Origin: Pseudomonadota bacterium
GTDB taxonomy: Bacteria > Pseudomonadota > Gammaproteobacteria > Pseudomonadales > JAUIET01
Assembly (NCBI GenBank): GCA_039111475.1
Contig: JBCCIP010000020.1
Span: 6,593 to 70,592, forward strand
Direction: 5' to 3'
DNA: 64,000 nucleotides
Shown: in pieces, positions 26,159 to 56,356 of the stretch
How positions within the stretch are numbered: position 1 is the stretch's first letter
Layout of the letters: each line of letters begins with the position of its first letter
Notes under the pieces: model-generated
Seen by the model: only the letters and a program-made list of their open reading frames with translations
Databases searched by the model: none
Told to the model about the DNA's origin: nothing
Position numbers and translations under genes: made by a program

Positions 26159-27625
26159 CTATTGCGCAGCAGCGTTGCCAGGAGCGGTAATAAAATTACC
26201 CTGGCTTGCACTGATCAGCTCTGTCACCCGACCTGAGTCCAGCAACAGTTCGAAATAGCTGCGATAAATCTCACTTCTAATTCGATGCGCGTCAGCCTGG
26301 GCGTTGAACAAGCGCTCCTCAACATCAATCAGTTCGATAATATTGATCTCGCCCAGCTCAAGGTTCTTCCGGTTCAACCGCTGCAATTCTTTATTGGATG
26401 CGATCTCATCCAGAGTTGCGCTCAAGGTAATTTGCTGAGCGTTGATCTGATTGAATGACAGTTTGATGCGGCGATCTAGCTCTTTTAACAAGCGGCTTTC
26501 TTCATGTTGCAGTTCGCGCAGCCGTGCTTCCGCGCGGTGTACTCCGTTGCGGCGGCTAAAGCCGTCCCATAACAGATAGTTCAGATTCAACTTCGCCTCG
26601 TAATTACCTCGGGAATCTCCATGGCCTCCTTCATCCGCAATCACGTTGGAACGCAGCTCCAAATTAAACTGTGGGCGAAACTTGCCGCGTTCTGCACGCA
26701 CTCGGTAGTTTTCGGCACTGCGATTGGTACGGTTCAACAATAACTCACTGTTGTCTTTGTAACCGTCTTCCAGATACGCGTCCAAGCGTGGAAGATCAAG
26801 ATCAGCTACGTCAAATGGCGCCATGGCCATAAACGGCGGTAGATCACCGGTTAGAAACTCGAGGTTACTCAAGGCGTCATTCAGCGAGGCAATCGTATTC
26901 CCAGTCTCCGCCCGCGCCGAGGCCAGCCTGGCCCTCGCGAAGTCCAATTCAACCTTACTCGCTGCACCGGCATCGTGCATCAGGTTGAGCTTTTTGGTTA
27001 GCGCCTGCATTTCTGTGATAAAGCTTTCGGCTTCACGGCGAGCAAGCTGAAACTGAAGAACCGACGAATAGAATTCAACAGCGTCATTGAGTACATCTTC
27101 AGTGATTATTCTGGTCTCCAACATAGTGGAGCGTTTGACCGCTTGCCGGCGGCGCAACTCTGATTTCGCAACGCCACCATCGTAAAGCAGCTTGGTGATG
27201 CGCAAGGTAACGTTGCGACCTGGTGTTGTATCAACAATTCGATCTGTATTGGCGGAAGGGTCATTGTATTCCGGACCCCACTGGCCAACCAGATCGGCCT
27301 CACCATATTTGTACGCCTTGCCCTGTTTAACCAGATATTCAGCTTGATCTTCCCTTGCCAGCGCCATATTAATATCTGGATTGTTCGCCAACGCAAGCTC
27401 AATAATTTCCTCAAAGCCTAATACCGGTGCTACCGTGCTGCCGTCTGCAGGAATTTTATTGACGTAGTCAGCTACCAGCAGATCACTGGCAGTAACGGGC
27501 ATGATACCCAAGGTTTCTTGCGCTACTGCTTCAGGCGCGTTTAGCGCACTCAAGCAGACAGCGGCAAAAATCGCCGTTGAAAGTCTACTTGCTCGCTTTG
27601 CGGAACTGCAGCTTAGCCCAGTCAT
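26159..27625 (-). CDS. TolC family outer membrane channel of the T1SS (SiiC/LapE-equivalent)
   Basis: Signal peptide; LALANNPDI; LYDGG; GAASKVELDFA; FRPQFNL; LWDGF; ELIDVE..LFNAQ. Last gene of the T1SS cluster. Confidence 0.92.
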   Translation of the reverse strand: MTGLSCSSAKRASRLSTAIFAAVCLSALNAPEAVAQETLGIMPVTASDLLVADYVNKIPADGSTVAPVLGFEEIIELALANNPDINMALAREDQAEYLVKQGKAYKYGEADLVGQWGPEYNDPSANTDRIVDTTPGRNVTLRITKLLYDGGVAKSELRRRQAVKRSTMLETRIITEDVLNDAVEFYSSVLQFQLARREAESFITEMQALTKKLNLMHDAGAASKVELDFARARLASARAETGNTIASLNDALSNLEFLTGDLPPFMAMAPFDVADLDLPRLDAYLEDGYKDNSELLLNRTNRSAENYRVRAERGKFRPQFNLELRSNVIADEGGHGDSRGNYEAKLNLNYLLWDGFSRRNGVHRAEARLRELQHEESRLLKELDRRIKLSFNQINAQQITLSATLDEIASNKELQRLNRKNLELGEINIIELIDVEERLFNAQADAHRIRSEIYRSYFELLLDSGRVTELISASQGNFITAPGNAAAQ

Positions 27626-28244
27626 ATTGCCCCTTAATCTCTGTCGGATTTTCTACTTTCACATATATGGCGTCTTTATCGAGACCTGTTTCCAGAAATT
27701 CATTACGCACATTCATTAGTCGGGCTATTGCTACTTTTCGACTAATCGTTTCAATTGGAGAGCGCTTGTTTTTACTCGCAGACATCACCAGCTCAAGATC
27801 TTCTGCGCCATGTTTACTGATGTTATTGGCAATAAAGTTCTTAACAATTTCCCTCGTTTCCTCAGTCAGCGTTATTGAATCCTTTCCGTAGAAAATGATC
27901 AGCGAGCTGCCATCTTGTTCAAAATCAACATCCTGTTCGCTGCCAGATTCTCTAAACTGCGCCTCTGTTTGACGAATCTCTTCCACCAAACCGGCCAATT
28001 GCGTCTTCAATGTGGAATTCTCTTCCTTCAAGCGATCAACGACTTGTTCGATAGGAATCTCGTCCACGTCTACTTCAACCACACCTTCTGCACTCACCTT
28101 GCTGGTGTAGGTGATAACGTGGAAGTAGAGCGCTGATGCGGTCACCAACACGAAGAACACAAACATAATCACAACAGCTGATAAAATATCTACAAACCCG
28201 GGCCAGGAATTCGCTGCTAGATCAGCCCCATCTTCTGAACTCAT
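27585..28244 (-). CDS. MotB/SiiA-like single-TM ion-channel subunit with periplasmic OmpA-like domain
   Basis: NSWPGFVDILSAVVIMFVFFVLV: a W-P-x-F-V-D TM motif carrying the candidate ion-binding Asp; short coiled coil; C-terminal RKVAIARLMNVRNEFLETG resembling a degenerate OmpA peptidoglycan-binding motif. Confidence 0.82.
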   Translation of the reverse strand: MSSEDGADLAANSWPGFVDILSAVVIMFVFFVLVTASALYFHVITYTSKVSAEGVVEVDVDEIPIEQVVDRLKEENSTLKTQLAGLVEEIRQTEAQFRESGSEQDVDFEQDGSSLIIFYGKDSITLTEETREIVKNFIANNISKHGAEDLELVMSASKNKRSPIETISRKVAIARLMNVRNEFLETGLDKDAIYVKVENPTEIKGQYDWAKLQFRKASK

Positions 28245-28250
28245 CGTTAT

Positions 28251-30053
28251 CTACGCCACGCCAGATTCTGAATCACTGTCTCGTCTGCCCAGGCCTGATT
28301 CATTGGTATCGTTACTTGACCGCCGCTCAAATGCTTGCGCTCGGACGTCAGCGATCTGGCCAGTAGCTTCCCGGCTTTGTACTGGGCTTCTTCCGACGAT
28401 CTTGATAAGCTGGTCCAAAGACGAACGTAATTGCGCTCTCTCTTGCACCCCTTCAAGCAGATTGACTTGCTGATCTGCGACGGTTTTCAGCTGATCAAAT
28501 ACCCTTTTTTCTACGCTCCGATTACTGTTCAAGCCTTCAACAATACTGTTGAGCAATAAAGACAACTCTTCAGATACCGGTTTTTCCCTAACCTCACCAA
28601 GCAGCTCTTCTAGGCGACCGTTCATCGCGCCAGCAGCATCGCGCACACGTGCATCAATTACCTGCAAAGCCTGTGCGACAGGCTCAATTGATTCGCGCAA
28701 TCGCTCATCGGTAAACTCATCATGCCCAGCCATCGCTGTGACGTTGTTATCGATCTGCTCGATCATTACGCCAAAGGTGTTATACGCTTGCTCGAAACGC
28801 TCTGGCATATCTTCACTAATGCCTTTAGCAACTTCGCCAATGCGCACCGCAACATGTTGATTGGACTCGTCTATCGTTACTAACGACGAGTTCATAGCGT
28901 CGAGTTTATCGGCAATGCGCTGACTACCGGCCAACAATTCCTTCGCATTCTCTTCACTAACAACCTTGCTGATTTGCGTATTCTGCTGCTGTATAGCTTG
29001 CAAGCTCCCATTAAGGCCGGCTAGCGTGTCCGCCATGGAAGCTTGTTGCACTAGCATTTCTTGGGTGTTTTTGGCGGTTAGTAAACTTGCCTCAGACGCT
29101 TCATTCATAACGCCCATAAGGTGACCCATCTTGCGCTGCGTAATTTGCGATGTTTGCACAAAGCCAACCAACCAGGCTTTTAGTTCATCAGAACCTGCTG
29201 CCTTAGGATTAGCCGCCCCTTTCTTCATCTTCTCACTGGGCGCAGGAATACGTTCGTCAATCCAGCGACTGGCGGTTTCTATGAACTTATCTTGAGAGGT
29301 GCCGCATAAATAGCTGAAAAAGCCTGTAAGTAGAGAACCGGACAACCCGAATAAAGACGAACTAAAAGCAACACCCATGCCTTTCAAAGGAGCCGCAATG
29401 CCCGCAATAAAGTCAGACATACCGTCTGAGCTATCACCTGTGATACTCGCCATACTACCCATGGCCTCACCAACAGCGTCAATGGTCAGCAGCAGGCCCC
29501 AGAACGTACCTAGCAAGCCCAACATAACCAACAAGCCAGATAAGAACGCCGTTCTTGAACGGGTCTTACCTACCCGGAATCCAAGTTTTGACTTGATCAG
29601 GCGAGCGTCTGTGTCAGTAACGTTCAGGTGACCATAGACCGTGAGATTTGTCAGCAAACCTGCCATGTTCTTGGTGTCGAGAACGCGCGCCGGACCCTTC
29701 AGAGTCGTCATTAACTCGGTGTGAAGATGCTCCGAACACTCACCTGTGCGGGCCGTTTCATCCAATTGATTCATGAAACGTGAGGTCTGCCACAGTCGGT
29801 ATTGGAACCATACAGCCATGGCCACAGCAACGACAAATATAAGTATGATGACGCTGTTGAGCACAACGTTTGTTTCAAAATTTACTCGAAGCTGATCAAT
29901 ATTTACGCCAATAATGGCCAGCACACTGACGATCGTTACTATTATTCCGGGCGTGATATACGCAAGAATATTTCCATCGACAGTGCCGCTGCATTTGTCT
30001 GGTTCAGCGGGAGGCGGCAGAAATTGAGCGAGCACACGCTTAAGCTTATTCAT
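28251..30053 (-). CDS. MotA/ExbB/SiiB-like ion-channel subunit with long C-terminal helical tail
   Basis: GLLVMLGLLGTFWGLL and PLKGMGVAFSSSLFGLSGSL (MotA/TolQ/ExbB TM motifs), then more than 300 aa of heptad-like tail. Start placed at MNKLK (AGGAAG upstream). Confidence 0.85.
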   Translation of the reverse strand: MNKLKRVLAQFLPPPAEPDKCSGTVDGNILAYITPGIIVTIVSVLAIIGVNIDQLRVNFETNVVLNSVIILIFVVAVAMAVWFQYRLWQTSRFMNQLDETARTGECSEHLHTELMTTLKGPARVLDTKNMAGLLTNLTVYGHLNVTDTDARLIKSKLGFRVGKTRSRTAFLSGLLVMLGLLGTFWGLLLTIDAVGEAMGSMASITGDSSDGMSDFIAGIAAPLKGMGVAFSSSLFGLSGSLLTGFFSYLCGTSQDKFIETASRWIDERIPAPSEKMKKGAANPKAAGSDELKAWLVGFVQTSQITQRKMGHLMGVMNEASEASLLTAKNTQEMLVQQASMADTLAGLNGSLQAIQQQNTQISKVVSEENAKELLAGSQRIADKLDAMNSSLVTIDESNQHVAVRIGEVAKGISEDMPERFEQAYNTFGVMIEQIDNNVTAMAGHDEFTDERLRESIEPVAQALQVIDARVRDAAGAMNGRLEELLGEVREKPVSEELSLLLNSIVEGLNSNRSVEKRVFDQLKTVADQQVNLLEGVQERAQLRSSLDQLIKIVGRSPVQSREATGQIADVRAQAFERRSSNDTNESGLGRRDSDSESGVA

Positions 30054-30233
30054 GAACCGCTTCCTGATGCACTGTTTCACTGGTACAAAGAATCATGTTG
30101 TCTTCTTTTTCGTATTTTTGTTTTTTTGTGACGACTGTCATAAGACTAGTAAATGATCCAGTCTTTATCTAATCAACTGAGCTATTTCGTTTTTTTTGTT
30201 TTTGTATTTCTGAACAAACTCTGGCCAGATTGA

Positions 30234-31592
30234 TCAAGACTCGCGCAAAGCCTGGCTTCTGATATTAATCAGAGGTTTTAACAAAGCTCTAAGTATCGAA
30301 ATTTGGCCAGTTAGAATGCTCACCTCAGCGGTCATGCCTGGTCGCACCTGCTGATCATCGCCCAGTCGATCGCTGTCCAATGCGACTCTGACTTTGAAGT
30401 GCTCCCTGTTCTGTTTGTCAACAAAGCTATCAGGGCTGATGTAAATCAACTCGCCATCGATGCCACCATAGATCGTGTAGTCATACGCGCTGATTTTGGT
30501 TAGTGCTGGTAGTTCTGGCCAGACTTTCCCGCGATCGGTTGTTGCTATTTGCCCTTCTACTACAAGTGTTTCATTCGCCGGAATAATCTCGGCTAAAGGA
30601 GCGCCTGGCTGACTCACGCCGCCAACCGTATGAATATGCAATTTGTTAACCGTGCCATCGATGGGTGAATTAATAGAAGAGCGTGTTACCTGATCTTGCA
30701 GAGCGGCTATTCGCTCGGTCAGAGTCTCTATCTGAAATCTTGCAGCATTAAGCTGCTCCGCCATTTCAGCGTGATGCTTCTGCTTGACCTCTTCCAATAG
30801 ACTCACGAGTTCAGTCTTTTCCGCCTCAATAATCGGAACCCTGTTTTTTGCACTTTCCAGCTGCGTGATGAGCTTTCGAGATTGGCTTTTATTATTCAGA
30901 TACAAAGTCTCCGAGATAGCCCCGGCATCAAGCAACTTCTTTCGAATAGCCAATTGCCGCTTGGACACGTTTAATTCCTGGCGAATGTTCTGCACCTGAG
31001 CTTGCAATGCATCCAGTTCGAATGCTTTCTGGTTTTGCCGTTCTTCAATGCCTTTTACAGTCTCCAGAAAAGACTGCCTGTTGGCGTCGAACAAAGACAT
31101 TTCCCGCCTGGCAAGATCCGAATTTTCTGCTACAAAAGACGCCGGTAATTCAAGTTGTTCAGCGCCGTTTTGCTCTGCTTCAATTCTTAGTTTTCGCGCC
31201 TTGAGCGCCTGAGCCTCAATCGCAGCTTCCTTAAGCTGCGTTTTTGCGCGCGTATTGGCAACAAGAAACAAGGTTTCACCAGCACTTACTTTTTGCCCTT
31301 CTTTGACCAGAATCGTTTCTACAATTCCCCCTTCGAGATGCTGCACAACACGGGCATTACCCGAGGGTATGATTCGCCCACTCGCAGTAACATGCTGATC
31401 TATTTCAGACAGGCCCGACCACAATAGGAACGCGGCAACCAGTGTCACTAATGCCAGCAACACCGGGCGATAGTTCCAGAAGTCATCCGCAATTTCAAAT
31501 GCATTACTGCGATCGGGGTTTGCCGCTCTAATTTCCTCTGCACGTTCAACAGCTGAAATAGCAGATTCCTTCATATCGTTTAACCAGCTCAT
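30234..31592 (-). CDS. HlyD family T1SS periplasmic adaptor
   Basis: TM helix; GRIIPSG..VVQHLEGGIV; SPIDGTV; GGVSQPG; SAYDYTIYGG; RPGMTAEV; LLKPL. Confidence 0.95.
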   Translation of the reverse strand: MSWLNDMKESAISAVERAEEIRAANPDRSNAFEIADDFWNYRPVLLALVTLVAAFLLWSGLSEIDQHVTASGRIIPSGNARVVQHLEGGIVETILVKEGQKVSAGETLFLVANTRAKTQLKEAAIEAQALKARKLRIEAEQNGAEQLELPASFVAENSDLARREMSLFDANRQSFLETVKGIEERQNQKAFELDALQAQVQNIRQELNVSKRQLAIRKKLLDAGAISETLYLNNKSQSRKLITQLESAKNRVPIIEAEKTELVSLLEEVKQKHHAEMAEQLNAARFQIETLTERIAALQDQVTRSSINSPIDGTVNKLHIHTVGGVSQPGAPLAEIIPANETLVVEGQIATTDRGKVWPELPALTKISAYDYTIYGGIDGELIYISPDSFVDKQNREHFKVRVALDSDRLGDDQQVRPGMTAEVSILTGQISILRALLKPLINIRSQALRES

Positions 31593-33724
31593 GCTTGCGC
31601 CCCCAACTTCTGCAACACGACCTCAGTCGGCCCATCTGCAATCATCTTCCCGTTATCCAGTAGGATCAGTCGATCCACCAGAGACAACAGCGATGTTCTA
31701 TGCGTTACCATAATTAAGGTGCGATTCTTTAAGTACTCCGCCATCTGCTGTTTAAATTGATTCTCGAGTACTGAATCCAGGCCGGTGGTTGGCTCGTCAA
31801 AGATCAGTACGCGGGGATTTCGCAGTATTGCGCGCGCAATAGAAATTGCCTGACGCTGCCCTCCAGATAACTGCGAGCCACCTTCACCCACCTCCGTTTC
31901 AAGGCCATGACCACAGTGCTTTATGATTTCTTCAACGCCGGAGATTCTGGCTGCGTACTTCAGCGCGGCTTCACTAACATCTGCTCTACCCATAAGGATA
32001 TTGTCGCGGATAGTGCCTGATACGAAGAACGGAAACTGCGGAACGACGGCTACCGTGCGACGTAATTCAGCAGGTGATATCGCTTTTAGCCCATAGTTTC
32101 CAAAATAGATATTGCCCTCAAAATCGTTTAAAAGACCTGTCATCACTGAAGCTAGGGTGCTCTTCCCAGCACCGGATGGCCCTATCAAACCAATCTTTTC
32201 GCCAGGTTTGATAATCATTGATATATCACGCAACGCGGGACGCATTTGCTGAGGATATTGATAGCGCACGTTCTCGAGTTGGATATCACCTTTCAGCGGT
32301 CCTTTGGGAGAGCGCTGGCAAGGTGCCTCGGTTTCGTTCGGCAACCTGAACAAAGCATCTATTGTTCTTAAAACATCCCTGCTTTGCTTCCAGCGACTGA
32401 CGACTCCGGCCAAATTCATTATCGGTGCAATAGCGCGTCCGGACAGAATGGTACACGCGATAAGTCCACCAATGGTCAGCTTGCCTGACTGGATCTGATA
32501 GACGCCTAAAACAACGATGAACACATGCACCATGTGCATAATGGTGACCGACAAATTCTGCACGGCTGAGAACAGAAACTGATTTTTTCGAGTGGTTTCG
32601 GCAGCACGCATCGACGCGTAATTCCACTTGAACAGACGGTCACCTACGGCATTAAACACCTTGAAATGCTGCATGCCCGCCAGTGACTCAATCATTAGTG
32701 TCGATTTTTTTTGCATAGATGAAAAATGATCTGCTGTACTGCGATTAATCGGTACTTGTATTGCCACATTGAAAACGATAATTGCGATCGCTCCTGTAAT
32801 CGGTACCAGTGTTAGTGGCGGCGATATCATGTATATGATCATCAGAAACAAGGCAAAAAACGGTAGGTCAACCAGTGTTGGTACAAAACGTGACGCGTAA
32901 AACTCTCTAATCCCTTGCAACTCTCGAAACAAATTGCTTCTCTCACCAACAGACAAGCGCATTTGTTCGGTATTCACCATCATCAACCGCTGCATCAAGG
33001 TGCCGTCAAAGCCGGTACCGACTTTTGCCGCTACGCGTTCAAGAATGTAGGAGCGCATTGTTTTTAGGAGGAAATCGAATAGCAATGCGATCGCCACACC
33101 AGTTGCCAATACGAACAATGTGGCTTCAGCAAAGTTTGGAATTACTGAGTCGTAGACGTTTAACGTAAACAGTGGCAGAGCAACTACGAACAAGTTGATA
33201 AACAGAGAGCAAAGCAAAACCTCACCGAAACTCGACAAGTGCTTAAACAGCGGCTGCCAGAACCAATCGATTGGCGGCTGCTCGCTCATGTGATCAGTCA
33301 CCGCAGCAACTTGTTCCTGATTGGGTCGTATACTCAGCGCTTTTCCAGAGTAGTTCTCACTCAAGCCTTTCAGATCGGCTCTTTGAAAACCAATGCCCGG
33401 AACGTACATTCTCCCTTCCTGACCTTCTCTGGGCAGGTACACTCCTGGACTGTCGTCGCTAGCCAGCAAGATGACTGGCGTTGGAGCGTTGGGGATATCA
33501 TCAAGCTCTAGAGAGTCAGTTCGTGTAGTAAATTGAAGCCTTTCGCCAAGGGCTTCCAAATCATCTAAAGAAAGCGGTCCCGGCTCACGAGAAAGCTGGA
33601 CCTTTAGCCCTTCAATATCTGCATTGATTCCAAAGAAGACCAGTACGATTTGCAGACACTTGGCTAAAGGATCTTCAACCTTTCGCGGTACATCATCATT
33701 ATTATCGACCAGTGTCAGCGCCAT
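31589..33724 (-). CDS. T1SS ABC transporter/permease with N-terminal C39-like domain
   Basis: PLFTLNVYDSVIPN; LVDLPF; Walker A GPSGAGKS; LSGGQRQ; Walker B LIFDEPT; VTHR. Confidence 0.95.
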   Translation of the reverse strand: MALTLVDNNDDVPRKVEDPLAKCLQIVLVFFGINADIEGLKVQLSREPGPLSLDDLEALGERLQFTTRTDSLELDDIPNAPTPVILLASDDSPGVYLPREGQEGRMYVPGIGFQRADLKGLSENYSGKALSIRPNQEQVAAVTDHMSEQPPIDWFWQPLFKHLSSFGEVLLCSLFINLFVVALPLFTLNVYDSVIPNFAEATLFVLATGVAIALLFDFLLKTMRSYILERVAAKVGTGFDGTLMQRLMMVNTEQMRLSVGERSNLFRELQGIREFYASRFVPTLVDLPFFALFLMIIYMISPPLTLVPITGAIAIIVFNVAIQVPINRSTADHFSSMQKKSTLMIESLAGMQHFKVFNAVGDRLFKWNYASMRAAETTRKNQFLFSAVQNLSVTIMHMVHVFIVVLGVYQIQSGKLTIGGLIACTILSGRAIAPIMNLAGVVSRWKQSRDVLRTIDALFRLPNETEAPCQRSPKGPLKGDIQLENVRYQYPQQMRPALRDISMIIKPGEKIGLIGPSGAGKSTLASVMTGLLNDFEGNIYFGNYGLKAISPAELRRTVAVVPQFPFFVSGTIRDNILMGRADVSEAALKYAARISGVEEIIKHCGHGLETEVGEGGSQLSGGQRQAISIARAILRNPRVLIFDEPTTGLDSVLENQFKQQMAEYLKNRTLIMVTHRTSLLSLVDRLILLDNGKMIADGPTEVVLQKLGAQA

Positions 33725-33794
33725 GAATTACTCTCGGGATTAACGCATTGTTATCCTTAAAGAGTAGACGACGAACGGCAGCTTCGCCGATTTT

Positions 33795-33823
33795 GTTAGA
33801 GCGGGCTAGCAGCGTGCTCTAAC
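33795..33823 (-). other. Hairpin between the giant gene and the ABC gene (mRNA stability element or weak terminator)
   Basis: GTTAGAGC...GCTCTAAC arms. No U-tract follows on the minus strand. Confidence 0.35.
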
Positions 33824-33853
33824 GCTTACTAAATGCACTAACAACTTTTGGAT

Positions 33854-51800: not shown

Positions 51801-54800
51801 GTATTGCTGACCGCGTCACCGATAATACTGTCAGCGCCAGCAGTACCGGTAATATTCTCAACATTTCGAACAGTGTCATTGTCGCTACCCGCAACGCTGA
51901 CTACAACGTCATTTTCGCCGTTGAGGGTTACGCTGACAGAAGTCGCCCCAGCCAGCGTGGAGTAATCGATGGTGTCCAGACCGTCACCACCGTCCAGCGT
52001 ATCCACACCCTGACTGGCAATAAAACTGTCATTGCCACCCAAGGCAAAAACGCTGTCGGCCACCGCTGAGCCAATCAGGTTGTCGCCCTGGTTTGTCGCG
52101 TAGTAGATTTCGAAACCACTTAAGGTATCAGTGGTGGCGTCACCGGCAAAAAATGCGGTTCCTGCGCCTATATCCAGTGTTATTCCTGCACCGGTTAAAT
52201 CGTCAAATCGAACTTCGTCAAAGCCGGCGCCACCATCAAGGTTATCGGCACCACCGCCACCTCGAATCACATCATCACCACCCAGGCCGCTTAGTGTATT
52301 CCCCTGGGCATCACCTGTGATGTTATCGTTGTTGGCTGTACCTATAACGTTTTCGATATTGTTGAGAACATCTGAACCGCCGTCGCCGTCATTGATAGCG
52401 GCGTTTTGCGCCATGTCGATGAGCACGCCGGTACCCGCACCAGAGTAATCAACGGTATCAACTCCGGTGCCGCCATCGAAGGTATCGTCTCCCAGACCAC
52501 TGATCAGGTTGTCACTACCCGCGCCCCCGCGCAGTGTGTCATCACCACCGGCGCCTTCCAATAAGTCGTCGCCTTCGGCACCTTCCAGAATATTGTTTGC
52601 GTTATCGCCAATGATGACGTCATCGCCGGCCGAACCGATCACATTCTCGACCAGTCGCATCGTATCGTCATCGCCGCCGTCAACAGTCACGGTCGCGTCG
52701 CCGGCACTGTTCATCACGACATTGATGAAATTAATACCGATCAGCGTCGAGTAGTCGACCGTGTCAAGGCCGCCGCCGCCAATAAACAGGTCGCTACCGG
52801 CACTGGCCACAAACAGGTCATCGCCTAGCAAGCCATCTATGGTATCGGCTTGCGCGCTGCTAATAATGACATCTGCCTGGTTGGTACCCGCATAACTTTC
52901 GAAGTTAATGAAGGAATCGATGCTGCTGTCTACAGCGTAAGATGCAGTGCCGTTAATAAGGTCTAAGGTAATACCCAGAGACACCAGATCGTCAAAGCGC
53001 AATTCGTCGTTGCCGCTTCCACCGTCCAGTGCATCAGACCCTGCCCCACCGCGAATCAGGTCATCGCCAGCGCCACCGCTTAGTTGATTGGCGAGGAAGT
53101 CTCCACTTATCGCGTCATCGCCATCGGTACCTATTACGTTCTCAATGTTGCGAACAATATCGTCCTGGTCGCCTGTGACCTGAGCAACCACATCAAAGCT
53201 GCCATTCAAGGTGACATCGATGCTGGTCGCACCAGCGAACTGAGAATAATCTAAAGTATCGATGGCCGCACCGCCATCGTAGGTATTTGCACCGCTGCTG
53301 GCCACCAGCGTATCGAAGCCTTGACCGCCTTCCAGCAAGTCATCACCGGCACCACCAATCAGCGTATCGTCACCGGCAATCCCGCGTAGAATGTTGTCGT
53401 TGCCGTCACCGCGCAAAATATCATTGAATGTCGACCCAGTGACATTCTCTATGCTGTCGAAGGTGTCCAGACCGCCGTCACCGTCGGCAGAGTTGCCAAC
53501 CGACAGGTCAATGTCTACGGAGTTGGCTGCCAGCCCATAATCCGCTGTATCCGACCCCGCACCACCGATCAGCGTATCATTGCCGGCACGGCCTGATAGA
53601 AAGTCGTCACCGTCACCACCGGTTAGAACATTGGCATTTTCATCGCCTGCGATCCGGTCATCAAATGCTGATCCGGTCAGGTCTTCGATGCCTTCGAGTA
53701 TGTCGCTTCCACCATCACCGTCGTTATTCACTACTCCGGTAGACAAATCCAGATCTACGGCGGACGCGGCCTGACTGTAGTCCGCCGAGTCGCGACCTTC
53801 GCCGCCGACCAGAATATCATCGCCGCCTCGACCAGCCAGTACATCATCCCCAGCTCCACCTTCAAAGCGGTTATCGGATTCATCGCCGGTAATGGAATCA
53901 TCACCATCGGTACCAATGATATTTTCCACATTACGCAAAGCGTCGTTGGCACTGCCGTCCACGATAACGCTGGCATCCTGCGCACCTGCCAAGGTCGTAC
54001 TGATGGAGTTAGCGCTTTCCAGAACGGAGTAATCAATAGTGTCGCTATCGTCGCCGCCATCGACTGTATCCGATCCTTCACTGGCAAGGATCAGATCATC
54101 CCCGGCGTCACCGTTGACAGCGTCATCACCGTCACCGCCGTCCAACGTGTCGATACCGCCGCCACCGGAGACCGTGTCGTCACCCCCGGCGCCGAATAGA
54201 ATCTGATCATTGTCGTTGCCGGTGATTGTGTCGCCGAACTCCGAACCGCTAACGTCTTCTATGTTACGCAACCGATCCACCTCGGAACCCATCACCGCGG
54301 TCGTAAAGCCCTGATTATCAGCCACTTCTGATAAATCTATGCTGACAGCCTGGGCCGCTCGGCTGAAATCGATGACATCGCGTTCCCCGTCACCCCCGTC
54401 CAGCTCATCGTTGCCGCGGCCACCTGACAGTCGATCATTGCCGTCTCCGCCGAAAATCGCATTGTCGTCATCAGAACCATGAATGCGGTCGTCGAAGTCG
54501 GTGCCAACGATGTTCTCCACCCCTTGCAGGGTGTCGATATTGGATTCATCAATTGTCACGTTGTCTTCCACCAACGTGAGATCGGCATCGATTGCCTTGG
54601 TTTCCCCTGAGTAATCCGCGGTATCGGTGCCGCTGCCACCTATTAACAAGTCGTTGCCGCCGCGACCCGCCAGTAAATCATTGCCAGCGCCACCATCCAG
54701 CGTGTTATCCGCGTTGTTGCCTATCAGCCTGTCATCGGCCGTACCAGCCCGAATATTCTCTATCTCACGTACCCGATCTACCTGAAACTCAGGGCCATTA

Positions 54801-56356
54801 CGGTCCACGTTGATCTCGGCAAAATCCTGAATCAGCAGAGACAGATCGGCGTCGATCTCCACGCTGAGATCGGAATAATCCACCGTGTCGCTGCCGGAAC
54901 CACCCACCAGCGTATCATCACCTTCACCGCCTTGCAGTAAATCGTCGCCTTCAGCTCCATCGAGAAAGTCGTCCCCACGATTACCACGAATTACATCGTT
55001 GCCGGCACCGGCATTAACCACATCATCAGCAACCGACCCATCTATGGCGTCATTACCGGACCCGGTAAATACCCGGTTAGCGTTAGGGTTATTGGCTAAT
55101 ACCCAAACCTCATCACCACTCTGGTTGATGAAATTCAGGTCCTGTGGACCAAATACATTACGCACAGAAAACAGCTGATCATCTTGAGAGATTAACGCCG
55201 TTTCGGGTGGTGGCGTCAGCGGCACACCATCCGCGTCGGTGGTTTCTTCATTGAACTTTGAAGTCACCTTAAACTGCACAGTGAACTCGTCATCTGACGG
55301 AACCGGGTAGCTCAGATTCAGCTTTACCGCGCCCCGATCATCGGTTTCAAACTCCTCAATGGTCCACGTATTGCCGCTGAGCGTGCCTCCCTCTATCACA
55401 AAATCGTCGGGCAGGCCTGTTAATTCAATCTTGTCGATTTCGAAACCCACTGGGAATTTAGGTGAGATCTCAATCACCCTGGACATCAGGGTGTTGCCAA
55501 AGAAATCACTGTGATCGGCTTCTACAACAAGGTCTTCGGTGGCAGTGGAATAGTTCAGTACCTCAGTCGAAAACTGCGATTCGTTCGATGGGTCGAACGC
55601 CGAAGCTTCCGAGCCGCCGCCACCTTGTATCAGGCGGACTTCCTCGCTGCCAATCGTGGTGGTCGTTTCGGAACTCGCCAGTTGCAGCAGGTTCAAGTCA
55701 AATAGCGCAATGTCCTCAGGTTCAGGTGGCGCTTCGCTGGTGGAGAAGCTGATGGCACTACTCGAATCCTGCGCAACGGCCTTGGCTTCTTCTACAAACG
55801 TGCCTTCATCGTCGATCGAACGACGCGTTTGATCGCCTTCATCCTCGTATTCAAATGTATTCTCTGACTGGCTTTGCGATTGCTCTTGCTGAGCTTGAAC
55901 CGCTTGTTGCAACACAACAAGTACTTCTTGCTGCTGCTGGGCTTCCGCTTCGGCCTCGGCAGCTGCTTCCGCTTTGGCTTCTGAATCCGATTCGGCCTTT
56001 TCCAGAGATTCAAAAGTCTCGCGCATAATGCTCGAGATAGCGATGAAGTCTTGCACACTTAAATTACCCACCTCGCCAATCTTGGAAAGTAGGATATGCG
56101 TTTCAATTAACTCGTCATCAAAATAGATCTCTGGCGATTCGTCTTCTTCAAATAACAGCAACGCCAAACTATTGAAAACGACCTTGGCATTGTTGGTTTC
56201 ATTAGTAACGATAATGTCAGAATCAACAATATCAATCTTGGCGTTATCAATAGACACGTCACTGATATTGATTTTTGCCTTAGGCTCAACAGCAACGGAA
56301 TCTGTGCTGTCGGATTGGGCAAGACTGACATGGATACTAGCTACTTTCTGAACCAT
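33854..56356 (-). CDS. Giant (7500 aa) RTX Ca2+-binding repeat surface protein/adhesin, T1SS substrate
   Basis: Uninterrupted 22.5-kb ORF; hundreds of GGxGxDxL nonapeptides in ~80-aa blocks (DYS...VDL...DTL..IENVIG); no Sec signal; non-repetitive C-terminus; adjacent T1SS genes. Confidence 0.95.
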   Translation of the reverse strand: MVQKVASIHVSLAQSDSTDSVAVEPKAKINISDVSIDNAKIDIVDSDIIVTNETNNAKVVFNSLALLLFEEDESPEIYFDDELIETHILLSKIGEVGNLSVQDFIAISSIMRETFESLEKAESDSEAKAEAAAEAEAEAQQQQEVLVVLQQAVQAQQEQSQSQSENTFEYEDEGDQTRRSIDDEGTFVEEAKAVAQDSSSAISFSTSEAPPEPEDIALFDLNLLQLASSETTTTIGSEEVRLIQGGGGSEASAFDPSNESQFSTEVLNYSTATEDLVVEADHSDFFGNTLMSRVIEISPKFPVGFEIDKIELTGLPDDFVIEGGTLSGNTWTIEEFETDDRGAVKLNLSYPVPSDDEFTVQFKVTSKFNEETTDADGVPLTPPPETALISQDDQLFSVRNVFGPQDLNFINQSGDEVWVLANNPNANRVFTGSGNDAIDGSVADDVVNAGAGNDVIRGNRGDDFLDGAEGDDLLQGGEGDDTLVGGSGSDTVDYSDLSVEIDADLSLLIQDFAEINVDRNGPEFQVDRVREIENIRAGTADDRLIGNNADNTLDGGAGNDLLAGRGGNDLLIGGSGTDTADYSGETKAIDADLTLVEDNVTIDESNIDTLQGVENIVGTDFDDRIHGSDDDNAIFGGDGNDRLSGGRGNDELDGGDGERDVIDFSRAAQAVSIDLSEVADNQGFTTAVMGSEVDRLRNIEDVSGSEFGDTITGNDNDQILFGAGGDDTVSGGGGIDTLDGGDGDDAVNGDAGDDLILASEGSDTVDGGDDSDTIDYSVLESANSISTTLAGAQDASVIVDGSANDALRNVENIIGTDGDDSITGDESDNRFEGGAGDDVLAGRGGDDILVGGEGRDSADYSQAASAVDLDLSTGVVNNDGDGGSDILEGIEDLTGSAFDDRIAGDENANVLTGGDGDDFLSGRAGNDTLIGGAGSDTADYGLAANSVDIDLSVGNSADGDGGLDTFDSIENVTGSTFNDILRGDGNDNILRGIAGDDTLIGGAGDDLLEGGQGFDTLVASSGANTYDGGAAIDTLDYSQFAGATSIDVTLNGSFDVVAQVTGDQDDIVRNIENVIGTDGDDAISGDFLANQLSGGAGDDLIRGGAGSDALDGGSGNDELRFDDLVSLGITLDLINGTASYAVDSSIDSFINFESYAGTNQADVIISSAQADTIDGLLGDDLFVASAGSDLFIGGGGLDTVDYSTLIGINFINVVMNSAGDATVTVDGGDDDTMRLVENVIGSAGDDVIIGDNANNILEGAEGDDLLEGAGGDDTLRGGAGSDNLISGLGDDTFDGGTGVDTVDYSGAGTGVLIDMAQNAAINDGDGGSDVLNNIENVIGTANNDNITGDAQGNTLSGLGGDDVIRGGGGADNLDGGAGFDEVRFDDLTGAGITLDIGAGTAFFAGDATTDTLSGFEIYYATNQGDNLIGSAVADSVFALGGNDSFIASQGVDTLDGGDGLDTIDYSTLAGATSVSVTLNGENDVVVSVAGSDNDTVRNVENITGTAGADSIIGDAVSNTLIGGAGNDVISGGGGSDTLIGGGGTDDLRFDNLSGVGITLNLNGTSGTASYTGDNSTDAFSEFERYFTTNQDDLINSSSANDLVFALSGDDVFNTSAGNDEFDGGVGLDTADYSTLTGVTSISVTLDLGNAAVVTVTGGDDDTLRNIENVVGTSGNDTLVGDDADNELRGLSGNDVLEGGDGSDDLLGGLGDDTLRGNIGNDLLDGGTGLDTADYSSASSGISLDLSSEQASNDGDGGTDTLRGIENITGSSQSDNIRGDTGANVIRGEDGDDVIYGGAGSDQLFGGNETGADQLRFDDLTDAGVTLDLQNSQATYGFDGSVDTFSEFEEFFTTEQADAVSGSTGADVVSTLGGNDIVNASLGADNLDGGADSDTIDYSGLGGVNFIDVVLNGSSDATVVVDGGDNDTIRNFENVIGTVGDDRMTGDGGDNALTGSAGDDTFFASSGNDTLDGGADIDTADYSGLIGVNFINVALNGASGAVAVVNGGDNDVLINIENVVGTAGNDTLTGDAQANQLSGRGGDDILNGAGGNDTLLGEGGADTLLGSEGADVMDGGAGNDTLDYSGLVSATAIDVTLDGGNDATVTVAGSDNDTARNIENVTGTSGNDFIGGDGAINVLLGLGGNDVFGASSGTDTIDGGLGVDEIDYSTLATANFVNVTLNDAADAIVVINGDGNDTLRSIENVTGTTGDDTLIGDSQDNRLSGLAGDDVLAGRGGNDTLIGGADTDTVDYSAASGNVNVSLLNNTAVDDGDGGVDTLQTIENVIGSDNDDVIEGDGNANLLEGGLGEDLFLGSLGADTVDGGLGDNDAIDYSNNGAANSIDVTLNSSSDATVFITGADDQTVRNVEHVTGSQGNDRIEGDNRNNNLSGDAGDDFLSGRSGNDILTGGAGIDTADYSTAASSVTVNLGASQAAVDGDGGQDQLFEIENIRGSNFSDTITGNTSDNLLEGGIGNDLFNASGGADIVDGGANTDTLDYSGLASATAINVDLDGANTVLVQITGGSNNQVRNIENIIGTIGDDTIGGDGSLNVLEGNAGNDTFLASSNTDVLDGGLGDDTVDYSGLVTANFIDVTLNGTTDAVVVVNGDGNDTIRSIENVIGTDGDDTLIGDALDNTLSGGAGDDVLSGRGGNDTLIGGTDTDTVDYSSAATGVDVNLQGNIATDDGEGGADTLQEIENVVGSANDDIIQGDVNANVLEGRDGDDVFNASLGADIVDGGTGSGDRVDFSGFAASNSVDVTLNGGIDAIANVANADNQTLRGIEHVTGSQGDDTIVGDSNNNQISGDAGDDTLSGRAGNDIITGGAGTDTADYSLSAGAITVNLASNQASADGDGSSDQLFEIENIRGSNFDDIITGDGSDNLLEGRGGEDAFTASSGADVIDGGGNADTLDYSSLVGATAINIDLDGANTVTVSITGDDDDSVRNIENIIGTTGDDTIGGDSSINLLEGRAGDDTFLASDNTDTLDGGLGEDTADYSGLVSANFINVTLNSTSDAIVVVNGGGNDTIRNIENITGTTGNDTLVGDGLDNELRGAAGDDVLSGRGGNDLLDGGADNDTVDYSAATTAVDVSLASNIASDDGDGGVDTLQDIENVIGSANDDAIEGDIGANVLEGRDGDDNFGGTLGADLIDGGVGNGDGVDYSALAATNAINVTLAGSSDATVSVNNADNQTLRGIENVTGSQGDDVIFGDGNDNELGGSAGDDTLAGRAGNDILRGGSGSDTADYSGAAGNVTVSLASNQASADGDGASDQLFDIENIRGSNFDDTISGNSSANLLEGNAGDDLISASAGTDIMDGGANNDTLDYSSLAGATSINVDLDGTNTVTVTVTGGDNDQVRNIENVIGTDGDDTIGGDASINLLEGRSGDDTFLASAGTDTLDGGLGSDTADYSGLLSANFISVTLDTTSDAIVVVNGGDNDTIRNIENVTGTSGDDTLVGDGLDNELRGAAGNDELSGRGGNDLLDGGVGIDSVNYSAATTGVDVSLAANAAANDGDGGVDTLQEIENVIGSSNDDVIEGDANTNVLRGQEGDDQFIATLGADIVDGGLGTSDEVNFSAFAAGNAIDVTLAGNLDATVNVNNADNQTIRGIEDVTGSQGDDRIVGDGNDNELSGDAGDDVLSGRAGADILTGGAGVDTADYSAAASNVNVSLASNQATSDGDGSSDQLFGVENVHGSAFNDTLAGDGSDNELLGNAGNDILTASAGSDVLDGGTNTDTLDYSSLSGVTGISVDLDDGNDVTVTVTGGDDDIARNIENVIGTDGNDVIGGDNAVNILQGQDGDDQFIASSNTDTIDGGVGTDSIDYSSLTTANFVNVTLAGAANSTAVVNGDGNDTLRNIENVTGTSGNDTLTGDALDNVLRGLAGDDLLAGRGGNDTLDGGTDIDTVDYSGAVSGVNVNLAGNTASNDGDGGVDTLLGFENVLGSANDDTIQGDGAVNVLQGGQGDDSFIATLGADDVQGGLGTDDSIDYSGFAAGNFINVTLNGSTSTTVSINGTDNQTISGVENITGSQGDDRIEGDGNDNAISGDDGVDVLSGRAGNDILTGGNGIDTADYSNASSTVVVDLSSNQASVDGDGGSDQLFEIENLTGSDFADTLTGDGNDNIIEGGNAADTLRGRGGNDTLDGGIGQDIADYSQAGAGVTADLNSNSASDDGDGGVDTLVSIEHLTGSAFADDLGGDANANTLLGGDSNDVLRGRGGSDTLDGGTGTGDVADYTGAANAIVVNLSLNAAANDGDGDSDVLQNIENIWGSANNDRIEGDNNGNVLEGRAGDDILIGNGGSDTLDGGADFDTADYSAAGSAVTIDLSSGVVGDDGSGGVDTLISIEGLIGSGSDDTLIGDEFDNRLDGGGGNDTIRGMEGDDEIIGGIGNDTVSYANSDNAVDVDLQNNIANDDGFGDTDTLSSIENVIGSDNDDFIVGSVGDNQLDGAAGDDVLRGGAGDDTIIGGAGNNTADYITAGSGVTVDLTNNLTSNDGDGGTDTLSQIQNVIGSIFDDTLTGDGDDNVLEGRNRDDVLRGRGGDDTLDGGTGTDTADYSLAAAGVTADIGANSASDDGDGGSDTFVSIENISGSSGVDDLSGDGAANTLFGDDGNDILRGRGGADTIDGGNNVDTVDYSGAASGINVDLQNNVAANDGDGASDTLNNIENVIGSVQSDIIVGSTAANVLSGGLLNDTLSGLAGADTLDGGGGIDTADYSQAAAGITVDLAANQASNDGDGSVDTLTSIENIIGSDFSDDISGDGNVNLLQGGDDDDFFRGSTNDDIIEGGFGSDTADYSGMAGSPSIDVTLRGGVDATVVVSGGNGTDTLRSVENIIATAGDDTLRGDGNDNTLSGGDGDDVIWGGGGSDTLDGGGHNTGDQLRFDDLTGVGIDLNLTNNTAFYSADSSTDNFINFEEFYLTNQGDTIIGSTGIDVVFSLGGDDSFQASAGSDDFDGGTDSDTIDYSTLGGVNFINVTLDGANAATVTVNGGDDDTIRNIENVIGTSGVDTITGDGESNTIQGQGGDDIISGGAGNDFLEGNAGNDLFFGSAGQNTFDGGNDTDTIDYSLQAGIASVAVQLNGSGSSAVIVAGGDNDLALNIENVIGTDGDDTLIGDGSDNEFQGGAGDDLLSGRSGADLLIGGADNDTVDYSGEVGINFIDLTLNGGSDVTVTVDGGANDTIREIENVIGTAGADIIRGDSLVNVLEGDDGNDTLVGGAGADVLDGGDDIDTVDYSQEVGINFIDVQLNGGSDATVIIDGADNDTIRAIENVIGTAGNDTISGDSQANNIDGQGGDDVIRGGGSNDTLDGGTGTNTLSYTDSGLGITTDMNVLSGGFFSVTVGSDTDLAANFRDVIGSAGADNITGDTQDNVIEGRVGTDILDGGAGNDTLRGGSEADTLIGGAGNDILDGGDTGDTLDGGIGDDTYLGGDGWDQLIASDGADTIDGGSATDTLDYSSQSSANFINVTLNGGTDATVTVDGDQDDTVRNVERIRGTAGNDTIFGDGANNYFWGGAGDDTMSGGSNADNRLWGEAGDDLFLGSAGTNRFDGGADTDTVDYSAQAGINFINVALDGSGSASVTVDGANNDIVLNIENVIATAGNDTVHGDDSANVITTLGGDDELSGGAGVDILDGGDDTDTANYEEAAAGIVVDLSADAATDDGDGASDTLTSIENIIGSDFDDIITGGVEANDLDGGDGSDYFFSSAGVDVIEGDNGSDTLDYSLQAGVTSISVNLNSGIQTTVTVNGSDNDLVRNIENIVGTAGNDVIRGDGNANSFTAGAGDDILRGEGGDDVFDGGAGINTLEYNDRVDRVVTDMSALTGGAFTVNVGGSETDTASNIRDIIGSQGNDDITGDAQDNTLRGDLGSDTLRGGDGNDLLQGESGNDVLEGGAGDDTLEGGSSNWDTLRGGAGVDTMDGGSGTRDAVDYRFESGINFIDIDLNGGSVSTVAVDGGDNDTIVNIERVFATEGNDIIRGHSQQNFFYGQGGDDTFFAAGGDDEIYGGGGNDTLDYSDLSSGLSVDMTAVAGGLFTLDIGGGAEGDRADSIEILRTTTGADTVQTDANVILLETLGGNDVVDLNSNDATVNAGDGADDVDLFGTDAIVDAGSGNDIVRAYGGGADVTLGTENDTLWAYSSGNTGTGDDGNDFLGNWGVYNNTFEGNAGADTFESRGGGSVFDGGADTDTIRYNNTGAGITVNLNESGDTTIVVNGQTNDTIRNIENVQGSDGADSIEGNSLANVLNGGTGNDTIIAGTGLDTYIGSSGTDTLDYSGFTAGNFIDVTLNGGSNVTVTVNGGDNHTANSFENIIGSQGNDTIGGDTASNNLQGGAGDDLILGSTSNDTLDGGSGTGDVLDYQNITGNGIDINLGAGFVTQFFGFTDFFSNFEQYLLTDFDDIVRGSSDADVVESLDGDDVFEASAGNDVLDAGLGGDTIDYSNLGGITGISATLNGANAIIVSVSGGDNDSIRNFENITGSGSDDSLTGDSLANILDGHSGNDVIDGGAGDDILFGGDDDDLFIAGAGTDTIEGGSDSDTVDYSGLVGANFINVTLNGAASTTVTVDGGDNDTLSDVENIVGTNGADTITGDANDNTLSGLGSADIIVGGGGADTIDGGAGGDNVSGGSGADVFFGGSGADTIDGGADNDTLDYSLHPSAGAISVTLNGTSVSTVTISGDSNDSIQSIENVIGTNGDDTIHGDGTNNTLIGGQGNDTLSGRVGNDVLDGGEDTDTIDYSTAAGGVTVNLGSGVVSDDGDGGSDTLLSIENFIGSASADIVSGSGASNVINTGSGADSITASAGADNYDGGADADSLDYSGLAGVSSISVSLNGSSSVFVSVNGGTDDTVRNIESITGTSGDDTLDGDAQQNTLLGGDGADTISGGSGADTLDGGNNLDTLDYSAAVGGVDVNLDTNTVLDDGFGFSDTISNFEFLSGSNFADTLTGNTGGNILIGNDGIDTIDGLAGNDLISGGVGNDIIDGGADTDTITYAGAAFGVTVNLSSNSASNDGDGGSDTLNNIENVTGSANNDNITGDSNNNTIDGGNGNDTLAGRGGLDTLNGGAGTNTVTYVNAAGSVTADLLAGGASNDGDLSTDTFSNIQNLTGSANADTLSGDNNANTINGGLGNDVLAGRGGVDDLQGGGGDDTISYSGAASGVTVNMVSGVTTNDGDGASDTFSDIDHVTGSNGNDNITGDAGGNQLVGGNGQDTLIGNGGNDTLNGGANADTIMGGVGNDVIDGGGDNDLVDYSLAANGIVVDLSAALASNRALNDGDGGQDTLSNIENVFGSDNNDDITGDSNNNIIDGGQGDDTINFSGGLDILDGGLNNDTLDYSSAGAITGGVLSAGAVDGVGGTLNVGTNSAIVDNFENFALSANNDTLTFDMDAIGSLNSVDANGGAADRMIITDSLAGDDLTDAGIDGVDLASLFTDVEELDFSGTGVNGGDTFDIGNSEISSITGSGNSLTIDIDSGTMNLTDFNALDQSGATVSGDSTVGNTRTIDWDNGVQLVINMT
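43916..50111 (-). repeat. Five tandem 1239-bp (413-aa, 5-module) higher-order repeats inside the giant gene
   Basis: DQLF(E/D/G)(I/V)EN codons recur at about 44058, 45297, 46536, 47775 and 49014. Antisense ORF ends recur at 44903, 46142, 47381, 48620 and 49859. All are spaced 1239 bp. Confidence 0.9.

Follow-up and report, generated by a model that had tools for sequence, protein, structure and literature searches.

A six-gene type I secretion locus with a putative ion-driven stator unit in marine bacteria

Why would a type I secretion system (T1SS) keep, inside its own gene cluster, a pair of proteins resembling the stator subunits MotA and MotB? This question is raised by a 64,000-nucleotide (nt) stretch of contig JBCCIP010000020.1 (positions 6,593 to 70,592; assembly GCA_039111475.1, Gammaproteobacteria), the whole of which is referred to below as the window. 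A scan for open reading frames (ORFs) found six minus-strand ORFs clustered at 26159-56356 in the order RTX giant, ABC exporter, HlyD-family adaptor, MotA-like protein (A), MotB-like protein (B) and TolC-family channel, which is the map that the initial annotation of this DNA had drawn. We conclude, with a probability of about 0.55, that this is a six-gene T1SS equipped with an ion-driven stator that belongs to the MotAB/ExbBD/ZorAB superfamily, and that this dedicated, proton-driven stator would most likely act on the retention or release of a family-specific N-terminal module (N-module) of the secreted substrate.

Both subunits contributed to the assignment. Stator A (28251-30053, minus strand) has 600 amino acids (aa) when read from an ATG at 30053 and 609 aa when read from a GTG at 30080; the ATG is the likelier start because an identical database protein (P0003) is recorded with 600 aa. 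A hydrophobicity scan called transmembrane (TM) segments at residues 36-66, 66-97 and 177-204 (TM1-TM3). TM4 (approximately residues 231-260), which the scan did not call, was placed by alignment with MotA/ExbB, and the loop between TM2 and TM3 was read as cytoplasmic. Profile matches of A were to ZorA proteins, i.e., PADLOC ZorA3 (3.1e-13, residues 177-259) and ZorA1 (8.5e-10), and NCBIfam ZorA_2 (NF033915; 7.2e-5, 22 bits versus a cut-off of 100). When the membrane part was compared by hhalign with PF01618 proteins encoded elsewhere in this genome (eight sequences), it also aligned with them (85.5%, E 5.6e-6, 103 columns covering TM3-TM4). The alignment used against PDB was trimmed to the membrane part because the full-length alignment returned coiled-coil noise from the tail; the trimmed profile gave five matches at E<=10 (best E 0.0045), four of which were of ZorA type (three ZorA entries and 8vvn, a 696-aa protein with a MotA/TolQ/ExbB domain), the fifth being ribosomal protein L29 (E 0.7). 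Alignments to ZorA spanned the GTF and AF.S.F / AF.GS.F motifs. Among the relatives of A, PF01618 was matched by 5 of 31 family members (E<=0.01), and the Atlas model of one homologue had MotA/ExbB clusters as its neighbours.

The residues expected along an ion path are kept in A. The family has an invariant helix pair, LVMLGLLGTFxGLL and PLxGMGxAFSSSLFGLSGSL, and G191-T192-F193, S240 and S242 were invariant in 31 sequences and aligned to the filter stretches of ZorA. Thr147 and Ser184 have been named as the ion filter of ZorA (PMC11946911). By sequence, A has the channel-forming TM3-TM4 core with a conserved GTF threonine and a Ser-rich TM4. Two further motifs, DARLIKSKLGFR and SRWID.RIP...LKAWL.GFV, were specific to the clade described below and sit before TM3 and after TM4, positions read as cytoplasmic. 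The C-terminal tail (28254-29270, minus strand; residues 271-609 of the 609-aa frame, 339 aa) has a net charge of -14, and its PDB matches were solely to coiled-coil-type proteins. It is presumed to be helical, and a cytoplasmic location is suggested by the assumed MotA-type topology and by the parallel with ZorA, the protein in which such an architecture is otherwise seen. Except for the conserved juxtamembrane start, SRWID.RIP...LKAWL.GFV, the tail differs among family members in both length and sequence. Its end is acidic and Ser-rich in the gammaproteobacterial members, closing in G-V-A or similar (28254-28290 in the window), and this is not conserved in the alphaproteobacterial ones.

Stator B (27585-28244, minus strand, 219 aa) consists of a short N-terminus, a single TM helix with Asp19 and, after a linker, a periplasmic domain that is OmpA-like but degenerate. 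Its membrane motif, WPGFVD, occupies residues 14-19; G16, F17 and D19 were invariant in 28 of 28 aligned sequences, P15 and V18 were near-invariant, and each of the 62 B subunits identified at other loci had GF(V/I)D. Arg175 of the periplasmic domain was also near-invariant. By hhalign, the TM part matched PRK09039/PRK09040-type B subunits (97.6%, E 3.9e-12), MotB-like “peptidoglycan-binding” proteins that bear the WPGFVD motif too, and the C-terminal domain matched OmpA-like domains (86.8%, E 4.2e-6), with Arg175 falling on the RA arginine. The top PDB profile match was Campylobacter jejuni MotB (0.0027), PF00691 was matched by 10 of 28 B family members, and the Atlas model of a B homologue aligned to PF00691 clusters with TM-scores of 0.38-0.52. 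The likeness of the accessory pair to MotA and MotB, first noticed in the initial annotation, was therefore upheld by the hhalign matches to PF01618, PRK09039/09040 and OmpA-like domains and by the ZorA3 match in PADLOC. Judged by sequence, A and B are divergent members of the MotAB/ExbBD/ZorAB stator superfamily, whose nearest detectable relatives are ZorA and PRK09039-type MotB-like proteins.

Does the pair belong to the secretion genes, or does it merely lie among them in this contig? The A family is large, with more than 982 matches at 90% clustering. Of 120 family members listed, 12 had a source name, and these were “hypothetical” apart from one “ribosomal protein L29” from JGI and two uninformative names; none of the members among the listed matches had a precomputed Pfam domain. 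When the A profile was compared with 1.84 billion cluster representatives, 2481 matched at E<=1e-3, of which 306 reached E<=1e-30, and the scores broke near E 1e-60, with approximately 90 full-length clusters above the break. A tblastn search of a plasmid collection with the A core gave zero matches. We examined gene neighborhoods in contigs from one genome per species, taking the best 80 of 252 relatives. In 63 of these 80 loci (L001-L063), all from other species and representing at least 63 species, an A-B-TolC type unit was found. B directly followed A, in the same direction, in 62 of the 63 (the single miss was at a contig end), and TolC followed B in 59, the remaining four being contig ends. 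Within 10 kb of A, a T1SS-type ABC gene was present in 45, an HlyD gene in 43 and an RTX protein gene in 58 of the 63 loci. Thus, homologues of the pair are kept beside T1SS and substrate genes, and the association is far beyond chance. Only the A-B-TolC unit was fixed; the ABC-HlyD genes and the substrate gene switched place and strand among lineages. The carriers were marine Gammaproteobacteria and Alphaproteobacteria, including genomes labelled Micavibrio. The remaining 17 loci (L064-L080) had no MotB-like, TolC, HlyD or RTX-substrate match, and 8 of the 17 had weak, partial matches to generic ABC proteins. Inspection of two of these 17 (L064 9989-12325 and L072 9926-11964) and of a further locus (L091 7329-9499) revealed a short MotA-like gene followed by a PRK09039-type B gene; A subunits of this sister family had 340-413 aa.

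The same division was seen in a tree of 79 A sequences (loci L029 and L058 of the T1SS type, and L065 and L067 of the other type, were omitted, as no ORF start was obtained for them). All 62 T1SS-linked sequences formed a single clade (SH-like approximate likelihood ratio test (SH-aLRT) 99), sister to 16 A sequences with no T1SS nearby (SH-aLRT 98). Gammaproteobacterial carriers were nested among alphaproteobacterial and Micavibrio-labelled ones. The root was placed on one long ZorA3 branch, so that any direction of transfer read from this topology is a suggestion.

The substrate provided a second line of evidence. The RTX giant (33854-56356, minus strand) is a 7500-aa ORF, as initially reported, and PF00353 RTX repeats were the sole Pfam family in it, with 76 matched stretches across its three thirds. 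It has an N-terminal non-RTX region (approximately residues 1-430), about 80 modules of about 84 aa, and a non-repeat C-terminus of about 150 aa, the presumed secretion signal. Clustering of strict nonapeptide motifs resolved 63 short RTX blocks with no single continuous RTX run, and the periodicities were 9 and 80-84 residues. The protein is rich in Gly (17%) and Asp (15%), has no Cys, and contains 1401 acidic (D+E) versus 171 basic (K+R) residues. Tandem Repeats Finder detected zero DNA-level arrays in the gene; the repeats have diverged.

The non-RTX region proved to be the N-module (55067-56356, minus strand; approximately residues 1-430, defined by an alignment of 23 sequences with 10 invariant columns). 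A conserved domain (approximately 1-110) is followed by a variable linker rich in acidic residues, Gln and Ala (approximately 115-215) and a second conserved domain (approximately 215-430) that contains a GGGGSEAS motif. No NCBIfam family matched the N-module at a meaningful E-value (at E<=1, only noise was seen), and a profile search of PDB gave nothing meaningful (best E 0.097). It was also found on RTX proteins of 828-2115 aa, and the open frames of substrates sharing it ranged from 1203 to 8278 aa. The constant feature of the substrates is therefore the N-module and not size, so that the giant size stressed in the initial annotation did not hold as the defining feature. For the same reason, we rejected giant size as an explanation for the presence of a stator. 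In genome G004, of the same genus (contig C10:59776-60945), the N-module frame has 1879 aa, yet the distance to the stator implies a gene of approximately 8,000 codons; the repeats may have been misassembled there, or the frame may be shifted or broken.

Stator and N-module were then compared for their occurrence in two genome sets, 41 relatives of the window's genome (sample 1) and 41 genomes centred on a Micavibrio chromosome (sample 2). In sample 1, a full-length stator (E ~1e-126) and the N-module occurred in the same 5 genomes, namely the window's own and 4 of 5 other species of its genus, and neither was found in the other 36; the remaining genome of the same genus lacked both. Eight further genomes of this sample had partial A-profile matches, and the two that were inspected were a ZorA3/ZorB3 pair and a PRK09039-type pair. 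In sample 2, the N-module was present in 10 of 10 stator-positive versus 1 of 31 stator-negative genomes. In total, 15 of 15 stator-positive genomes had the N-module, with one stator copy and one N-module copy in each. These counts show linked gain and loss of the stator and the N-module, and are not independent trials.

How might such a stator act on such a substrate? In T1SSs, the C-terminus of the substrate leaves the cell first and the N-terminus last. We propose that A and B would form a 5:2 proton channel (A5B2) anchored to the cell wall, and that proton flow through it would act on the T1SS conduit, altering its state during the final step of a secretion that runs C-terminus first, when the conduit would either hold or release the N-module. 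The cell could thereby set whether the RTX fibre is retained at the surface or shed, as has been suggested for Salmonella SiiAB and its substrate SiiE. Contact with the ABC/HlyD side would likely be made by the clade-specific cytoplasmic motifs of A and by its tail. Retention is the reading we favor because the ion-path residues are kept, because the A-B-TolC unit, the T1SS and the N-module are co-inherited, and because SiiAB provides a precedent.

Several observations weigh against this reading. The proposed role in retention is borrowed from SiiAB, and the homology scores of A and B were all weak to moderate, the hhalign comparator alignments being small (8 and 14 sequences). The window's A matched no Pfam family, PF01618 included, and the window's B matched neither PF00691 in Pfam nor any PADLOC profile. 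The OmpA-like domain of this B reads SASKNK in place of the GHTD motif, and because that motif has been lost, peptidoglycan binding by B is uncertain. ABC and HlyD genes do not always adjoin the unit, and the stator could serve TolC or the envelope and not secretion itself. In addition, genome G076 (completeness not given) has the N-module with no stator match even at E<=1e-3, and the genomes within each sample are kin, so that the counts overstate independence.

Other explanations were weighed against the same data. The stator might energise transport, with proton flow through A5B2 adding force or gating to ABC/HlyD/TolC for acidic RTX chains, a third energy input to secretion and not a retention switch. 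The membrane potential is required early in the secretion of HlyA, the window's substrate is a 7500-aa chain with the acidic excess given above, and the A-B-TolC unit is invariant, all of which fit this possibility. Relatives of the Exb/Tol type have also been described as transmitting energy to the outer membrane (PMC12204202, 10.1101/2021.05.14.443827). Nevertheless, we regard it as unlikely: substrates with the N-module have frames down to 1203 aa, so size does not call for a stator, deletion of siiAB does not stop secretion of SiiE (PMC12607715), and the conserved part of the substrate that co-varies with the stator is the N-terminus, which leaves last. A more ambitious version of the retention reading, in which the pair is a rotary motor whose cytoplasmic tail of tens of nm holds, releases or pulls back a fibre of approximately 100 nm by its N-module, is a long shot. 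If true, it would let the cell grip surfaces, algae or prey in a reversible and energy-dependent way, and ZorAB-type motors would be a general signalling and force module of which phage defence is one use. Movement of the filament, its retraction and motility, which had been raised when the locus was first read, are speculation.

The resemblance of A to ZorA also suggested a sensor or trigger similar to Zorya, in which the channel would remain plugged until a disturbance of the envelope or contact with a surface or a prey cell; B would then bind the wall, A and its tail would rotate, and the tail would switch the ABC protein on or free stored substrate. ZorA/ZorB are the closest detectable relatives, the tail of A is long like that of ZorA (339 aa for the window's protein), ZorAB has been suggested to detect perturbation of the envelope and to signal via the tail (PMC11946911), and many carriers are labelled Micavibrio, organisms that attach to prey (PMC3189940). 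We consider this quite improbable, given that the cluster has no ZorC/D/E-like effector genes, that the similarity to ZorA is mostly confined to the TM core and that the family shows no conserved tail sequence; a contact between tail and ABC protein is putative. Least probable by far, in our view, is that the pair plays no part in secretion and travels with TolC as an anti-phage module or as an envelope tether resembling Tol. It is true that this genome has a bona fide ZorA3/ZorB3 pair at another place and that the sister A family sits with a PRK09039-type B without any T1SS. On the other hand, all 62 T1SS-linked A sequences form one clade, the A-B-TolC order is kept wherever it is visible, with the B/TolC overlap also found in L001-L003, and the N-module accompanied the stator in every stator-positive genome of both samples.

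The transport parts themselves are ordinary T1SS components. The ABC exporter (31589-33724, minus strand, 711 aa) is of the LssB/LapB type with an N-terminal C39-like domain; it matched ABC_tran, ABC_membrane and Peptidase_C39 in Pfam and scored 689.4 bits against TIGR03375 (LssB type), slightly below the cut-off of 693.1. The HlyD-family periplasmic adaptor (30234-31592, minus strand, 452 aa) matched TIGR01843 with 350 bits (cut-off 208.65), and a TM scan gave a single N-terminal TM segment at residues 39-64. The TolC-family outer-membrane channel (26159-27625, minus strand, 488 aa) matched Pfam OEP (143.8 bits, 6.7e-42) and TIGR01844 (132 bits, 2.5e-38; below the 225-bit cut-off). The ABC and TolC proteins were above Pfam cut-offs though below NCBIfam subfamily cut-offs. 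All elements of a T1SS were therefore present, i.e., the ABC protein, the HlyD adaptor, the TolC channel and an RTX substrate with a non-repeat C-terminus.

Tight and overlapping junctions, also reported initially, were confirmed by measurement. ABC and HlyD overlap by 4 nt, A and B are separated by 6 nt, and B and TolC overlap by 41 nt; the last overlap recurs in the related loci L001-L003, for which coordinates of tblastn matches were used. The gap between the giant gene and ABC is 129 nt, and that between HlyD and A is 153 nt with the GTG start (30080) or 180 nt with the ATG start (30053). The latter, AT-rich gap (30054-30233, 180 nt, no strand assigned) may contain a candidate internal promoter for an A-B-TolC unit. 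A promoter scan placed one promoter-like site in it (30141-30114); promoter and terminator scans of the region gave counts no higher than shuffled controls. GC content was approximately 0.48 in the transport genes and 0.54 in the giant gene, where Gly/Asp-rich coding is expected to raise it. Among public sequencing runs, the only one found to contain the locus was a marine metagenome run, which may be the source of this DNA, and no RNA run was found.

Genes around the cluster were also inspected. Upstream of the giant gene by 245 nt lies a glycosyltransferase-like gene (56602-58740, minus strand, 712 aa) with Pfam matches to GT8 at the N-terminus (9.8e-9) and Glyco_trans_1_2 at the C-terminus (7.3e-5) and with no NCBIfam family. 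It occupies the same position in three other genomes, all of the same genus, and its membership in the system is uncertain. Further on (58954-61197, minus strand) is a gene in which a pyridine nucleotide-disulphide oxidoreductase is fused to a SelD-like domain (TIGR03169, 433 bits, above cut-off; TIGR04369, 441 bits, below cut-off), which is unrelated to the stator T1SS. On the same contig (C20) outside the window, a 1550-aa ORF (C20_-_12956), estimated to lie upstream of the cluster, has a C-terminal OmpA-like domain (3.7e-18).

What does the locus add? SiiAB is the one stator-assisted T1SS that we found described, and the present locus adds a family that is unannotated and monophyletic. Its fixed A-B-TolC core and co-inherited N-module give comparative leverage on T1SS stators, and candidate coupling surfaces are offered by the clade-specific A motifs, by the N-module of the substrate and by B's degenerate domain of the wall-binding type. 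Moreover, among the nearest detectable relatives of Zorya motors are pairs whose work lies outside phage defence. At least one carrier, Granulosicoccus sp. 3-233, which has the complete operon with a substrate frame of 8278 aa, is without the metagenome-assembled genome label that most other carriers bear and may be a cultured strain; if it is cultured, the question becomes testable.

Comparison with known systems begins with the wider superfamily. MotAB/PomAB, ExbBD-TonB and TolQR-TolA belong with the present pair to one superfamily of ion-driven membrane complexes, sharing homology in TM3-TM4 and the Asp of the B subunit, but no flagellar, TonB or TolA partner was found here; nine ordinary PF01618 genes are present elsewhere in the genome. 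PRK09039-type pairs, whose A subunits form the sister clade and whose B subunits share the WPGFVD membrane motif, differ in having short A subunits and B subunits in which a canonical OmpA domain is combined with a long coiled coil. We know of no function for these pairs. LapA/LapBCE systems resemble the locus in their LssB/LapB-type ABC protein (TIGR03375) and large repeat substrate. LapA-type adhesins are thought to be held at the surface by the N-terminus, under control of LapG/LapD through a protease and cyclic di-GMP, whereas retention in the present system would depend on an ion channel. No LapG or LapD gene was detected in the window, and an adhesin controlled by LapG/LapD was rejected, as such genes are absent from the locus and the N-module matches no known retention-module family. 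The genome's only LapG-like Peptidase_C93 gene (PF06035, 1.4e-17) is on another contig (C6:20123-20488; L089), which hints at a separate Lap-type adhesin system elsewhere in the genome.

Similarity to ZorAB is closer. ZorA proteins were the best database matches of A, both ZorA and A have a long C-terminal tail, presumed to be helical in A (that of ZorA extends into the cytoplasm for approximately 70 nm; PMC11946911), B has a TM Asp and a domain of the wall-binding type, and the Thr/Ser filter positions are conserved. However, A scores far below the family cut-offs, B is unmatched in PADLOC, and the pair is always embedded with TolC and T1SS genes. None of the partners ZorC/D/E/F/G was found in the cluster, whose neighbours are T1SS and housekeeping genes. 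With partner genes absent at the locus and scores this low, a Zorya defence system was rejected. Elsewhere in the same genome (contig C9, approximately 120157-122537; L090 8158-10538), a ZorA3 of 581 aa (PADLOC, 1.5e-203) and a ZorB3 of 211 aa (3e-99; NCBIfam PRK09040, 1.6e-96) are flanked by ORFs without a family, and this pair is probably a type III Zorya defence locus.

The closest known parallel is the Sii system of Salmonella pathogenicity island 4 (SPI-4). A review gives SiiAB as the T1SS example of ion-driven motors (PMC12204202). We found no stator-like pair described in a T1SS outside SPI-4, in a literature search in which most subscription journals were not covered; the searched part of one article (PMC8277102) had no mention of SiiA, SiiB or MotAB, and a preprint on stator phylogeny left out ZorAB-like remote homologues (10.1101/2024.07.22.604496). 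SiiAB conducts protons in dependence on SiiA Asp13, the protonophore CCCP lowers the retention of SiiE, this retention is controlled by the SiiE N-terminus, and SiiB binds the ABC protein SiiF (10.1101/641415, PMC12607715, 10.1101/2021.05.14.443827, PMC6272769). Deletion of siiAB, with SiiE secretion intact, lowers adhesion (PMC12607715), and how SiiAB uses the proton gradient is still open (PMC12607715, 10.1101/2021.05.14.443827). SiiA has 210 aa, with a TM segment at 14-38, a linker, an OmpA-like domain, Asp13 and Arg162 (10.1101/641415). Its periplasmic domain, which is in PDB, was not among the 60 listed of 75 B-profile matches at E<=10.

Both systems combine a T1SS having a C39-like ABC protein with MotB-like and MotA-like inner-membrane proteins encoded beside TolC. 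Both B-type proteins have approximately 210-220 aa, a short N-terminus, a TM Asp, a linker and an OmpA-like domain with an important Arg, and both substrates have a special, non-repeat N-terminus. The differences are that the A-like gene precedes the B-like gene here, that the substrate consists of RTX repeats (PF00353 only) and not of BIg repeats as in SiiE, that A has a long ZorA-like tail, and that the carriers are marine or environmental bacteria and not an enteric pathogen. Hence, the description of the locus as a rearranged Sii-type machine, offered in the initial annotation, stands for the parts, which parallel those of SPI-4, but is unsupported for descent, as the only detectable relatives are of the ZorA/ZorB and PRK09039 types. 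Recruitment of a stator by this T1SS independently of Sii and descent from a Sii-like ancestor are equally possible.

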